Assembly: GCA_963770565.1 (NCBI GenBank)
Contig: CAVYQE010000002.1
Coordinates: 800,001-864,000, forward strand
Direction: 5' to 3'
Length of the DNA: 64,000 nucleotides
Origin: an uncultured Actinomycetota bacterium
GTDB lineage: Bacteria; Actinomycetota; Actinomycetes; JAFAQI01
Below, piece after piece: positions 3,624 to 39,500 of the stretch (position 1 is the first letter of the stretch; each line of letters begins with the position of its first letter). The notes below the pieces were generated by a model that did not search any database, was not told the DNA's origin, and saw only the letters and a list, made by a program, of their open reading frames with translations. Made by a program: the position numbers and the translations under genes.

Positions 3624-3687
3624 GGGCACTCCCTGATTTCACTGATTTCGCAACGGCTTCGAACTCGGTGGAGCCGGACAAGACGCC

Positions 3688-3720
3688 TCGTCCACACCTC
3701 CATCCACAGACTGTGGATCA
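3688..3720. promoter_or_regulatory. DnaA boxes in the dnaA promoter region (autoregulation)
   Basis: tcgtccaca 3688-3696, ccatccaca 3700-3708 and inverted tgtggatca 3712-3720. Confidence 0.65.
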
Positions 3721-21439: not shown

Positions 21440-22888
21440 GTGCCTTCCGACGCCCCGAGTGCCATTGCCGCGGCACGGCACGCGGTGCGCGAGCTGCTCC
21501 GGGTGAGCGGGATCACCGATCAGCTGGCGCGGCGGTTCGGCGTCGCCGGGCACCGGCTGTACCTGGTCGGCGGGCCGGTCCGCGACGCACTGCTCGGCCG
21601 AGAGACCGCCGATCTCGACTTCACCACGGACGCCCGGCCGGAGGAGGTGCTCGCGCTCGTCGGCCCGCTGGGGCCGACCTGGACGACCGGCATCACCTTC
21701 GGCACGGTCGGCGTACAGATCGATGACCGCAAGTGCGAGATCACCACCTTCCGGAGCGACTCCTACGACCCCGAGTCACGCAAGCCGGCGGTGGAGTTCG
21801 GATCGACCGTCGAGGGCGACCTCGGTCGCCGCGACTTCACCATCAACGCGATGGCGGTGGCCCTCCCGGTCGACGCGGCGCAGCCGATCGTCGACCCGTT
21901 CGGCGGCCTCGACGACCTGGTCGCCAAGGTGCTGCGGACCCCCGACAAGCCGGAGCGCTCGTTCGCCGACGATCCGCTGCGGATGCTGCGGGCTGCTCGC
22001 TTCTCCGCCCAGCTGGGGTTCACGGTTGCCCCGGATGCGGTCGCGGCCGTGCGCTCGATGGCGGCCCGGCTCGAGATCGTCAGCGCGGAGCGGATCCGGG
22101 ACGAGCTGGTCAAGCTGCTGTGCGCGGACGACCCGCGTCGCGGCCTCGAGCTGCTCGTCGACACCGGGCTGATCGAGTTCTGCCTGCCCGAGGTCGGCCG
22201 GCTGACCGAAACGGTGGACGAGCACCGTCGGCACAAGGACGTGTACGCCCACACGCTGACCGTGCTCGAGCAGGCGATCGCGCTCGAGTCGGACGGGCCG
22301 GACCTGGTGTTGCGGCTGGCCGCGCTGCTGCACGACATCGGCAAGCCCAAGACCCGCTCGATCGAGGCGGACGGCAAGGTGTCGTTCCATCACCACGAGG
22401 TGGTGGGCGCCGACATGACCCGCAAGCGGTTGGCCGAGTTGCGGTTCCCGGGCGAGATCGTCGACGACGTGTCGCGGCTGGTCGAACTGCATCTGCGGTT
22501 CCACGGCTACGCGGGCGGGACGTGGACCGACGCGGCGGTTCGTCGCTATGTCCGTGATGCCGGTCCGCTGCTCGACCGGCTGCATTCACTGACCCGGTCG
22601 GACTGTACGACCCGCAACGCGCGAAAGGCGCGGGCGCTCGCGGCGGCGTACGACTCGCTGGAGGCGCGGATCGGCGAACTGGCCGCGGAGGAGGACCTCA
22701 ACCGGATCCGGCCCGACCTCAACGGCAACGAGATCATGCGCGAGCTCTCGCTCGAGCCGGGTCCGCTGGTCGGCAAGGCGTATCAGTACCTGCTCGAGCA
22801 GCGGCTCGAACGCGGGCCGCTCGCGCACGACGAGGCGGTCGCGCTGCTCCGCGAATGGGCCGCCAACCAGGGCCTCGAGACCTCCTGA
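21440..22888 (+). CDS. cca: CCA tRNA nucleotidyltransferase (HD-domain type)
   Basis: [10 protein letters not shown]...[39 protein letters not shown]. Confidence 0.95.
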
Positions 22889-22905: not shown

Positions 22906-22994
22906 CGCCAAGCAATGTCACATTGCCCAGGTCTTCGTGGGGGTGATGTGACATTGCCCCGGTGATTGTGGGGGTGATGTGACATTGCTTGGCG
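22906..22994. repeat. Triple-palindrome 31-bp-period mini-array, copy 1
   Basis: 15-bp cores at 22912, 22943 and 22974; terminal IR cgccaagcaatgtcacat / atgtgacattgcttggcg; between convergent cca and MFS genes. Confidence 0.9.
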
Positions 22995-22997
22995 GGG

Positions 22998-24281
22998 TCA
23001 GGCACCTCGGGTGACGTGCTCCGAGGCGCCGTACGCCGTCGCGGTCGCGAGGTAGCCGGCTGACAGCACGATCAACGTGATGAGCGACCGTCCGTTCGTC
23101 GGCAGCACGAAGGCGGCGAGGAACGCGGCGGCGACGAAGCTGATGTTGAAGATCGTGTCGTAGAGCGAGAACACCCGGCCGCGGTATTCGTCCTCGATCG
23201 TGGTCTGCACCAGGGTGTCGACGCAGACCTTGGTGGCCTGGGTGGCAAAGCCAAGGGCGAGTGCGGATACGAGCAGCAGTGCCATCGAGAACGGCGCGCC
23301 GAAGGCGAGTTGCGTCACGGCCGCACCGGCTGTGACGGCGACGATCCACCGCTGCTTGCCGATCCGGGTGGTGACCCACGGCGTGACTGCAGCCGCGAGG
23401 ACGAGGCCGACTCCGGCTGCGGTGACACCCTGACCGACCCCGACCAGGCCGGCCCGCAGTATGCCGTGACTGTGGAACGAGTTGCGATACAGCAGCAGCG
23501 CCATGATCGACCACAGCCCGAACATGAAGCGCTGCGCGAAGATCACCGCGAGCGCTCGCGCCGCCGTCGGTCGTTGCCATAGGTGGTGGGCTCCCGAGGC
23601 GAGGCCGCGCACGATCCCGGCCAGCTGCGCGCGGAGCGGATCGGTGTTCGGCGGGTGTGGCCCGAGCGCGTCGGCCGGAAGGCGGCTCGCGACGAGCGCG
23701 GCCATCATGTAGCCGGCCGCGGCTGCCAGCGCGGCCAACGCGTCACCGTGGTCGCCGCCGCCGCCGGCCGCACGCAGTCCGAGTCCGATCCCGGCACCGG
23801 CGATTGTGACGACCGTGCCCGACGTCGGGCTGATCGCGTTCGCGAGCAGCAACCGTTCGGCCGACACGACGCTGGGGAGCGCAGCCGACAACGCGGCGAG
23901 ATAGAAGCGGTTGACCGCGAGCGCGGCGAGTGCGGTCAGCGCGAAGACCGGCCCACTCGGGCCGTGTGCGACGAGCGCGACTGCGGTCGCCACCACCAGA
24001 ACGGAGCGAACCGCGGCGCCGTACACGAGGACCCGTTGCCGTCGCCAACGGTCGAGCAGCACGCCGGCGAACGGCCCGATCAGGCTGTAGGGGAGCAGCA
24101 GGATCACGAAGCCGGCCGCGACCTGTTCGGGTCCGGTGTGGTGCTCCGGGTTGAACAGCACCGCGCCGGCGAGGCTGGTCTGGAAGAGCCCGTCGGACGT
24201 CTGCGACGTCAGCCGCGTGGCGAGCAGCGTGACGAAGCGACGCTCGCCGAACAACCGTCGTAGCGCATCGGCCCGGCGCAC
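22998..24281 (-). CDS. MFS transporter (conserved between cca and ino1)
   Basis: GPFAGVLLDRWRRQRVL MFS motif A, about 12 TM helices, YRGRVFSLYD. Confidence 0.88.
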   Translation of the reverse strand: MRRADALRRLFGERRFVTLLATRLTSQTSDGLFQTSLAGAVLFNPEHHTGPEQVAAGFVILLLPYSLIGPFAGVLLDRWRRQRVLVYGAAVRSVLVVATAVALVAHGPSGPVFALTALAALAVNRFYLAALSAALPSVVSAERLLLANAISPTSGTVVTIAGAGIGLGLRAAGGGGDHGDALAALAAAAGYMMAALVASRLPADALGPHPPNTDPLRAQLAGIVRGLASGAHHLWQRPTAARALAVIFAQRFMFGLWSIMALLLYRNSFHSHGILRAGLVGVGQGVTAAGVGLVLAAAVTPWVTTRIGKQRWIVAVTAGAAVTQLAFGAPFSMALLLVSALALGFATQATKVCVDTLVQTTIEDEYRGRVFSLYDTIFNISFVAAAFLAAFVLPTNGRSLITLIVLSAGYLATATAYGASEHVTRGA

Positions 24282-33893: not shown

Positions 33894-34067
33894 TCAGATC
33901 CTCGCTCGCGGCGTTTTCCCTCGCTTGCGTGCTTCAGCACGCGGCGCTCGGTGCGGCCTTGCGAGCAAGAATCTGACCGCCAGGCTCGGCCGTGCGGTTC
34001 GGTGTCTCTCGCTTGCGGCTTCGAAGCACGCGGCGCTCGGTGCGGCCTTGCGATCGACCACCTGAGC
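33894..34067. repeat. Two tandem copies (one intact, one degenerate) of the TCGCAAGG...AACGCCGCGAG structured element
   Basis: Copy A 33894-33976 has terminal arms tcagatcctcgctcgc / gcgagcaagaatctga. Identical 29-mer agcacgcggcgctcggtgcggccttgcga at 33936-33964 and 34025-34053. Confidence 0.75.
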
Positions 34068-34093
34068 ACCCGCCTAGCGCGCGACTGCGTTCC

Positions 34094-34174
34094 AAGCAAT
34101 GTCACATTGCCCCCACTTTGTGGGGGGCAATGCGACATCACCCCCGGGAAAGGCTGGGCAATGACACATTGCTT
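34094..34174. repeat. Triple-palindrome 31-bp-period mini-array, copy 2
   Basis: Cores gcaatgtcacattgc 34096, gcaatgcgacatcac 34127, gcaatgacacattgc 34158. Confidence 0.9.
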
Positions 34175-34271
34175 TCGGGGGGCACCGAATCCGGTTCGGA
34201 TCGTGATCGTTAGCATCGGGTGACCGAGCGCGCACTCCTGTCGCGCCAGCGTGGTGAGGTGCGACAGCGGC

Positions 34272-39413: not shown

Positions 39414-39500
39414 CCAAAGCAATGTCACATTGCCCCGCACTTCGTGGGGGCACTGTGACATCACCCCGCATTGTGCCGGGGCAATGTGACATTGCTTTGG
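39414..39500. repeat. Triple-palindrome 31-bp-period mini-array, copy 3
   Basis: Cores at 39419, 39450 and 39481; perfect 23-bp terminal IR ccaaagcaatgtcacattgcccc / ggggcaatgtgacattgctttgg. Confidence 0.92.

Follow-up and report, generated by a model that had tools for sequence, protein, structure and literature searches.

The closest described systems to the locus analysed here either pair dispersed repeats with an enzyme gene or supply folds for such an enzyme. REPIN/RAYT systems (REPtrons) are built from short extragenic palindromes, arranged as inverted units at a fixed distance and lying near stop codons (PMC3116915, PMC3733652), and the accessible part of a GTAG/CGTC survey of these systems does not list Actinobacteria. 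In the accessible account of SsnA, a small single-domain GIY-YIG single-strand nuclease is encoded between NTS/SRM repeats, each homologue has its own repeat, and the repeats occur genome-wide (PMC11893778). AbiEi antitoxin monomers are described as binding two 23-bp inverted repeats and bending the DNA (PMC7319586), and the active-site residues mutated in the dimeric nuclease I-Bth0305I were D196, H213 and D222 (PMC3239194). DUF559 has been grouped with Vsr and the homing endonuclease in a study whose accessible text draws no link to repeats (PMC3424549).

The family described here resembles REPIN/RAYT systems, as the available descriptions present them, in its element (extragenic, hairpin-forming palindromes at a fixed distance, numbering tens to hundreds and lying near stop codons) and in its organization, in that several families coexist in a genome, each around a gene of its own, and singlets occur as remnants. 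It differs in the bracketed gene, whose product models as AbiEi plus Vsr-like rather than as an HUH Y1 tyrosine transposase (PF01797 was found in none of five genomes of the genus), in consensus ends of CCAA/TTGG that carry no GTAG or CGTC tag, and in having three dyad cores, repeated every 31 bp, where REPINs have a REP doublet. With SsnA, as far as its description is accessible, it shares a repeat–gene–repeat layout, a non-transposase nuclease, one repeat type per homologue and genome-wide repeats; unlike SsnA, the enzyme is a predicted 327-amino-acid (aa) fusion of AbiEi-like and Vsr-like parts. The likeness to the antitoxins AbiEi and Rv2827c (6y8q, 1zel) lies in the predicted fold of residues 3–191 and, in the available text of PMC7319586, in inverted repeats upstream of their own gene, whereas here the putative nuclease domain is fused, the sites are dispersed rather than confined to a promoter, and the nuclease gene alone, with no toxin partner, lies between two copies. 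Similarly, the predicted catalytic fold and invariant E199, D232, E243 and H250 recall Vsr and the EDxHD nuclease I-Bth0305I (1cw0, 3r3p; accessible text of PMC3239194), but the gene lies outside any intron or intein with no methylase beside it, the last Asp is Met or shifted by one residue, and the DNA-binding part is different. By analogy, we regard this as a REPIN-like system with an unrelated enzyme. The repeat–gene–repeat layout is of a known type, described so far for enzymes unrelated to this one; a literature search of mainly openly available main texts found no description of such a palindrome–nuclease pairing.

The window, the whole 64,000-nucleotide stretch analysed, covers C2:800001–864000 of the source genome (G000; 4.43 Mb in 11 contigs, 95% complete) and includes dnaA. 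It holds nine cores, starting at 22912/22943/22974, 34096/34127/34158 and 39419/39450/39481, against 0.68 expected by chance, and none of 100 shuffled sequences reaches nine. The features of the window are:

3700–3708, plus strand: DnaA-box-like CCATCCACA upstream of dnaA, a comparator outside the element.
22908–22992, minus strand: copy 1, CCAA-core-16-core-16-core-TTGG, with cores at 22912–22926, 22943–22957 and 22974–22988.
34092–34176, plus strand: copy 2, with cores at 34096–34110, 34127–34141 and 34158–34172, between dnaB and a family-4 glycosyltransferase gene.
34111–34126, plus strand: spacer S1 of copy 2, semi-conserved, of the 3-nt-loop hairpin type.
34142–34157, plus strand: spacer S2 of copy 2, variable, in a C4...TGG frame, without a covarying stem.
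39415–39499, plus strand: copy 3, with cores at 39419–39433, 39450–39464 and 39481–39495, flanked by two minus-strand genes, one for a thioesterase and one for an ECF sigma factor.
39434–39449, plus strand: copy-3 spacer S1, with the sequence found most often in S1 (20 of 61 elements).
39458–39464, plus strand: degenerate right half of the copy-3 middle core, ACATCAC, which includes element position 43.

Copy 1 sits between the convergent stops of a CCA-adding enzyme gene (ending at 22888) and an MFS gene (ending at 22998), and its site carries the element in the sister species (G003) and lacks it in G001 and G004. The copy-2 site is a shared hot spot, where the repeat family differs between G000, G001 and G002 and is lacking in G003, which retains ATTGC only. 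Behind dnaB (33905–34070) there are also two copies of a second, unrelated repeat, a unit of about 90 bp with CAGCACGCGGCGCTCGGTGCGGCCTTGCG, which has more copies in G003 and is found in G001 too. Copy 3, common to G000 and G003, probably lies within the leader of the ECF sigma gene; at this site (39429–39441) the nearly core-free G002 and G004 retain an 11–13-bp match, TTGCCCCGCAC, to the core–S1 junction, either a remnant of an old copy or native leader sequence. One public contig covers copy 1 with three differences and may derive from the source sample, sequencing runs with at least half of the sampled words are soil metagenomes, with no RNA run listed for these words, and reads across the copies showed no informative joint.

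The sequence-only reading had given these nine core starts and their 31-bp steps, which hold, and the 16-bp length and sequence of all six spacers, which read exactly as it gave them; its expectation of many copies genome-wide and of a fixed period among them is likewise borne out. Allowing up to three mismatches per core, G000 contains 68 multi-core clusters (52 three-core, 15 two-core and one six-core), and 107 of the 124 core spacings are 31 bp, the others being 62 (12), 30 (2), 61 (2) and 32 bp (1). In the twelve 62-bp spacings, a middle core has degenerated too far to be scored. The core occurs 132 times at up to one mismatch, and the most frequent 16-mer of the genome is a word containing it; other abundant 16-mers, beginning GGCGGCGGATTG, CGGGAGTCGATT and CGGCTCGGGAGA, have 95, 67 and 47 copies. 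The six-core array (C1:1521928–1522097) consists of the 31-bp unit expanded in tandem, its spacers nearly identical, and overlaps the start of a PAP2-like gene. An IS1634 element (C11:863868–865704) interrupts the middle core of one copy, with about 110 bp duplicated, and two further identical transposase genes lie on C8. A 522-aa transposase gene (C11:85237–86805; IS1182-like by reading of its translation) stands at a duplicated CTAG just past a copy and is absent in G003; the extra DNA of about 1.8 kb at C11:85087, considered as cargo, is an ordinary IS. As for a MITE of a DDE transposase, the ends of the two IS compared, IS1634 and the one beside C11:85087, differ from the element.

The consensus of 61 oriented full-length copies of the 77-bp element is CCAA-GCAATGTCACATTGC-S1-GCAATGTGACAnCAC-S2-GCAATGTGACATTGC-TTGG, in which the outer cores and flanks form inverted ends of 21–23 bp, the interior measures 62 bp, and the middle core has a conserved half only on its S1 side. 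The two spacers differ in kind, because S1 is semi-conserved across the 61 elements, with 29 distinct sequences and 20 copies identical, and S2 is represented by 59 distinct sequences. A stem around a 3-nt loop in S1 has 48 of 87 positions paired against 30.5 in shuffles (0 of 2,000 reach this value; the rows are related), and an S2 hairpin has no covariation support (58 of 177 paired versus 52 shuffled). Of the initial proposal that length is selected and spacer sequence is free, the fixed length therefore stands and the free spacers do not, given the S1 consensus and its covarying stem. From end to end, flank positions 1–4 pair in 190 of 244 cases versus 184 in shuffles (75 of 2,000 reach this value); the complementarity taken as copy-specific is mostly the consensus CCAA/TTGG. 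Compensation is found for 5 of 36 left-flank deviations and, in core 3, for none of 12 core-1 deviations; by this comparison the cores are conserved singly and not as pairs. Non-templated tails were considered and dropped, the flanks being C-rich on the left (0.44) and G-rich on the right (0.47) in modest excess over the post-stop background of 0.35–0.39.

Copies lie mainly behind stop codons, most within about 20 bp. With gene ends taken from a simple purpose-made gene caller, convergent gene ends are favoured (31 of 61 copies versus 383 of 2,138 gene pairs) and divergent promoters avoided (1 of 61 versus 347 of 2,138), and orientation shows no preference relative to transcription (15 versus 11). 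On replichores assigned by GC skew in the draft assembly, the strand bias of the focal family is not significant (37 of 61, p = 0.12), and the 31-bp-period family of a paralogue at C11:330850 tracks the replichore at 35 of 42 loci (p = 1.5 × 10−5), a count in which gene direction is not separated out. The plot of copies against distance from oriC that the sequence-only reading proposed shows no gradient along contig C2; positions 1890–2200 and 3630–3720 of the window, with degenerate DnaA boxes on either side of dnaA, are a probable oriC. Its interpretation of the period as three helical turns is no more than suggestive. An automatic scan of close relatives, which yields many further values when seeds are non-dyad, gives spacings of 30–32 bp (87), 51–53 bp (17) and 62 bp (4); the first two classes fit three and five turns and are weak evidence of phasing, but there is no 41–42-bp class among these relatives, and universal helical phasing is not supported in 26 distant DUF559 loci, which show other spacings.

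The proposed search for a DUF559/AbiEi-type neighbour led to the partner gene. Among eight inspected regions (close pairs, singles and the long array), the copies at C1:1103545 and C1:1104682 bracket one 327-aa gene (G000:C1:1103707–1104690). The other neighbours suggested, RAYT and Nop-domain genes, were not found (PF01797 in none of five genomes, PF01798 not in G000). The partner protein has no match in Pfam or NCBIfam, and profile searches of the PDB give weak matches only (3hrl, E = 0.24; a stretch of IbpA, E = 0.07, dismissed as chance). We collected 159 relatives and obtained a structure model with a pLDDT of 94.8, in which residues 3–191 match AbiEi 6y8q (Z = 13.2, r.m.s.d. 5.1 Å, 182 aligned; Foldseek E = 5.9 × 10−5) and residues 194–301 match 3hrl (Z = 12.3), I-Bth0305I 3r3p (Z = 11.9) and Vsr 1cw0 (Z = 10.6), with r.m.s.d. 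2.3–2.4 Å. The protein is thus predicted to combine an AbiEi-antitoxin fold with a nuclease fold of the Vsr/I-Bth0305I kind. Its language-model neighbours are of AbiEi-like/DUF559 type at 0.97, an assignment that by sequence is only weak (AbiEi_4 in 6 and DUF559 in 2 of 103 homologues at E ≤ 0.1). S196, E199, D232, E243, N245 and H250 are invariant in all 103 homologues, and the D232/H250 spacing resembles that of I-Bth0305I D196/H213, as mapped by spacing and not by superposition. On the same mapping, four members of the catalytic set E, D, E, H, D are invariant and the last is Met259 or Asp/Glu258: 98 of 103 homologues have Met where I-Bth0305I has D222, and 73 of 103 have an acid one residue earlier, for which reason nuclease activity is not assured. 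No residue clearly tracks core sequence among the homologues.

Repeats and genes of this type occur together across homologues. A scan of genome contigs with the single protein returned two loci, one of them useful; the close homologue it gave comes from a Mycobacteriales bacterium record. Long matches define 103 homologue loci, of which 95 are distinct and 76 have both flanks; 67 of the 76 share at least three 13-mers between their flanks and 9 do not, compared with 43 of 300 pairs drawn across loci and 25 of 200 positions chosen at random, although these counts overstate independence because the loci are kin. In a careful tree of 84 proteins, a 19-row group (support 92/97) has most GCAATGT-type cores and variants, a 16-row group (99/97) has the ATGTCACAT and ATGTGCCAT types, a 35-row group (100/100) has other hairpins, and two more GCAATGT loci fall in a separate 3-row group; a 42-row clade of a quick tree was not recovered here and is not used. 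Repeat type goes with protein clade, and also with genome content. At up to one mismatch, the core has 93, 88, 59, 32, 32, 27, 26 and 11 copies in eight relatives, at most 6 in the other 27 genomes of the family and none in 24 genomes outside it (reversed control 0; one unpublished genome left out). Eight of the nine genomes with at least ten cores hold a homologue of 54–100% identity framed by this core. In G006 the gene is split into two pieces, and G025 has a gene so framed yet only 4 cores. A second core type is most abundant in G034 (24 matches) and G025 (15), the two genomes with its gene.

Within G000, three paralogues have other flanking repeats, abundant in two. The paralogue at C11:330850 is flanked by its own 31-bp-period family, and a DUF559 gene (C6:36669–37613) is framed on both sides by a 61-bp palindrome family, of which it is the candidate partner. 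Flanking repeats of the paralogue at C11:452261 and of a frameshifted C8 gene are not abundant, and none was seen at C1:1048206. At one chromosomal site, six genomes carry homologous nuclease genes with five different cores or periods, reflecting divergence in place or replacement.

The homologues also share a promoter word. TCCACA lies 10–130 bp upstream of 60 of 91 homologues versus 117 of 4,706 G000 open reading frames, and in 17 of 26 distant DUF559 loci (30 fetched, less two unpublished, one our own and one unparsed) versus 139 of 3,000. The DnaA-box consensus is TTRTCCACA, and at up to one mismatch this consensus occurs in 34 of 93 homologue promoters versus 36 of 3,000 random windows. 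The commonest promoter words, CCATCCACA and CTGTCCACA, both also occur around dnaA of G000, and the CCATCCACA nonamer stands upstream of the partner nuclease gene. DnaA may control the nuclease genes, and another factor could use the same word.

In the comparison with G003 (about 90% identical to G000; 92% complete, 550 contigs), we fetched 46 G003 elements, of which 35 are mappable; spread is slow, since 33 of these 35 occupy positions where G000 has a copy too and the other 2 have no counterpart in G000. At the partner locus G003 has the left flank, one core and the right flank, and the cassette is wholly absent in G001. A profile search of G003 found no cognate gene, its sole homologue belonging to another clade, and the gene may be unassembled given an assembly of this completeness and contig number. 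One core replaces three in G003 at C2:872870, C10:203807, C2:275624 (less clean), C1:838777 and C8:116701, with partial collapses at C2:304593 and C8:101723; counting the cassette, precise one-core collapse occurs at 6 sites in G003, with none in the reverse direction among the sites compared. Simple decay is argued against by losses or breakage in G000 itself at three sites (C2:742164, C1:551754 and C6:29820), by the frequency of single cores (7 of 47 in G003 versus 4 of 72 in G000, p = 0.11) and by similar core mismatch loads, G003 keeping 126 cores at up to two mismatches. The element is missing in G003 at C2:834096, C2:646102 and C1:857762. The REPIN-like part of the initial proposal of a MITE/REPIN-like mobile unit is upheld by dispersed fixed-length palindromes and a framed gene; as to mobility, presence or absence at several sites is unpolarised between G000 and G003, no empty site is polarisable as a gain (outgroups failed at C1:857762 and C2:646102), and one unpolarised site hints at a CTAG duplication.

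Identity between G000 and G003 is 96–98% in the outer cores, 92% in flanking genes and 77% in the middle of S2, and the interior is flipped at 3 of 21 sites, one of them ambiguous. The middle core ends in ACATCAC in 29 of 35 G003 copies versus 14 of 61 G000 copies (p = 1 × 10−8). Of the 25 shared sites, 18 differ at element position 43, in 16 cases with T in G003 and C, G or A in G000; 8 differ at position 42, and 0–1 at each of the other adjacent positions. In this one species pair, the position-43 pattern could mean that copies evade cutting, or mutate in connection with it, where the gene is retained, or that the palindrome is corrected where the gene has gone. Gene content differs beside or between copies at C2:504474, C6:28755, C8:101723 and C8:109603–116701, in a comparison of element sites with genes labelled by reading their translations: a HEAT-like gene has been lost or gained by crossover within the middle core, about 1 kb is inserted at a spacer loop, two copies are separated by 7 kb versus 1 kb, and a gene for a secreted protein adjoins a damaged copy.

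We favour, as somewhat more probable than not, the explanation that the arrays are copies of a dispersed palindromic element of 77 bp with three cores, which the bracketed predicted AbiEi-like/Vsr-like nuclease likely recognises, and that this enzyme likely maintains and occasionally spreads its copies as RAYTs are thought to do for REPINs. The AbiEi-like part would bind the conserved cores and the Vsr/EDxHD-like domain would nick or cut; repair from another copy through the 21–23-bp inverted ends would rebuild or flip the 62-bp interior and might rarely seed a new site or move the gene cassette. Where the gene is absent, slippage from one outer core to the other would reduce copies to a single core. 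With less confidence, the DnaA-box-like promoter motif may tie expression to replication. Collapse and flipping are possible in principle without an enzyme. A bolder version, which we consider unlikely, is a replication-coupled, homing-like system within one genome, in which a DnaA-controlled AbiEi–Vsr nuclease would cut collapsed or fully matching cores, repair templated by another copy would refill the 62-bp interior in either direction, the cassette would enter a single core by the same route, a broken middle-core half would confer resistance, and copies would be fixed points of gene gain and loss across Actinomycetota.

Also unlikely is an SsnA-like mode, with cutting confined to the element folded as a single-stranded hairpin, in incoming DNA or on the lagging strand; the enzyme would thereby direct recombination and gene exchange, and copies would spread by recombination and mark gene gain and loss without being copied. 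The layout equals NTS-ssnA-NTS in the accessible text of PMC11893778. Copies fold strongly as DNA (z = −4.3 to −8.9), the S1 stem covaries and the adjoining half of the middle core is the conserved one, and both the gene differences at copies and the replichore tracking of the paralogue's family agree with such a mode. The long terminal stem, however, lacks compensation, the focal family has no significant strand bias, the paralogue's bias is not separated from gene direction, the predicted N-terminal fold is of a double-strand-binding type, and the gene turnover on record covers element sites only. It is quite unlikely that the arrays only bind protein, with the nuclease domain dead or idle and an autoregulating AbiEi-type repressor or chromosome organiser acting at gene ends from cores phased at three or five turns. 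Such a role would be at odds with the invariance of five active-site-like residues in 103 of 103 homologues, the avoidance of divergent promoters and preference for convergent ends, the missing gene at the partner locus in G001 and G003 and the lack of phasing in distant families, and binding alone leaves the origin of the sites unexplained; in its favour are the 30–32-bp and 51–53-bp periods of close relatives, the single rather than paired conservation of cores, a copy just upstream of the promoter region of the nuclease gene and Met at the fifth catalytic position.

An RNA-level element (a terminator, an mRNA stabiliser or a processed small-RNA array), with the bracketed gene incidental, is very improbable. 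Copies fold well and, lying as most do about 20 bp or less from a stop codon, would be transcribed, but repeat type goes with gene clade, orientation to transcription shows no preference, and a terminator-like match is weak and limited to copy 3. TIGR-Tas arrays have a Nop-domain partner protein, and the Nop domain (PF01798) was not found in G000, which is 95% complete; nor does the element have an Rfam hit at gathering score, so the processed small-RNA array raised by the sequence-only reading is not borne out. CRISPR loci are long arrays with unique spacers and cas genes; compared on array structure, those here have three cores and 16-bp framed, partly shared spacers, with no Rfam hit.

If the favoured pairing of element and nuclease is correct, it would add a third enzyme class paired with its own dispersed palindromes, after RAYT and Ssn, and the many actinobacterial genes that carry no annotation beyond AbiEi-like, DUF559 or hypothetical would gain a function. 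For the question of how repeats of the REP type originate and persist, this family offers a short, defined site. It also offers many natural protein–site pairs of different sequence, and could supply small site-specific nucleases.
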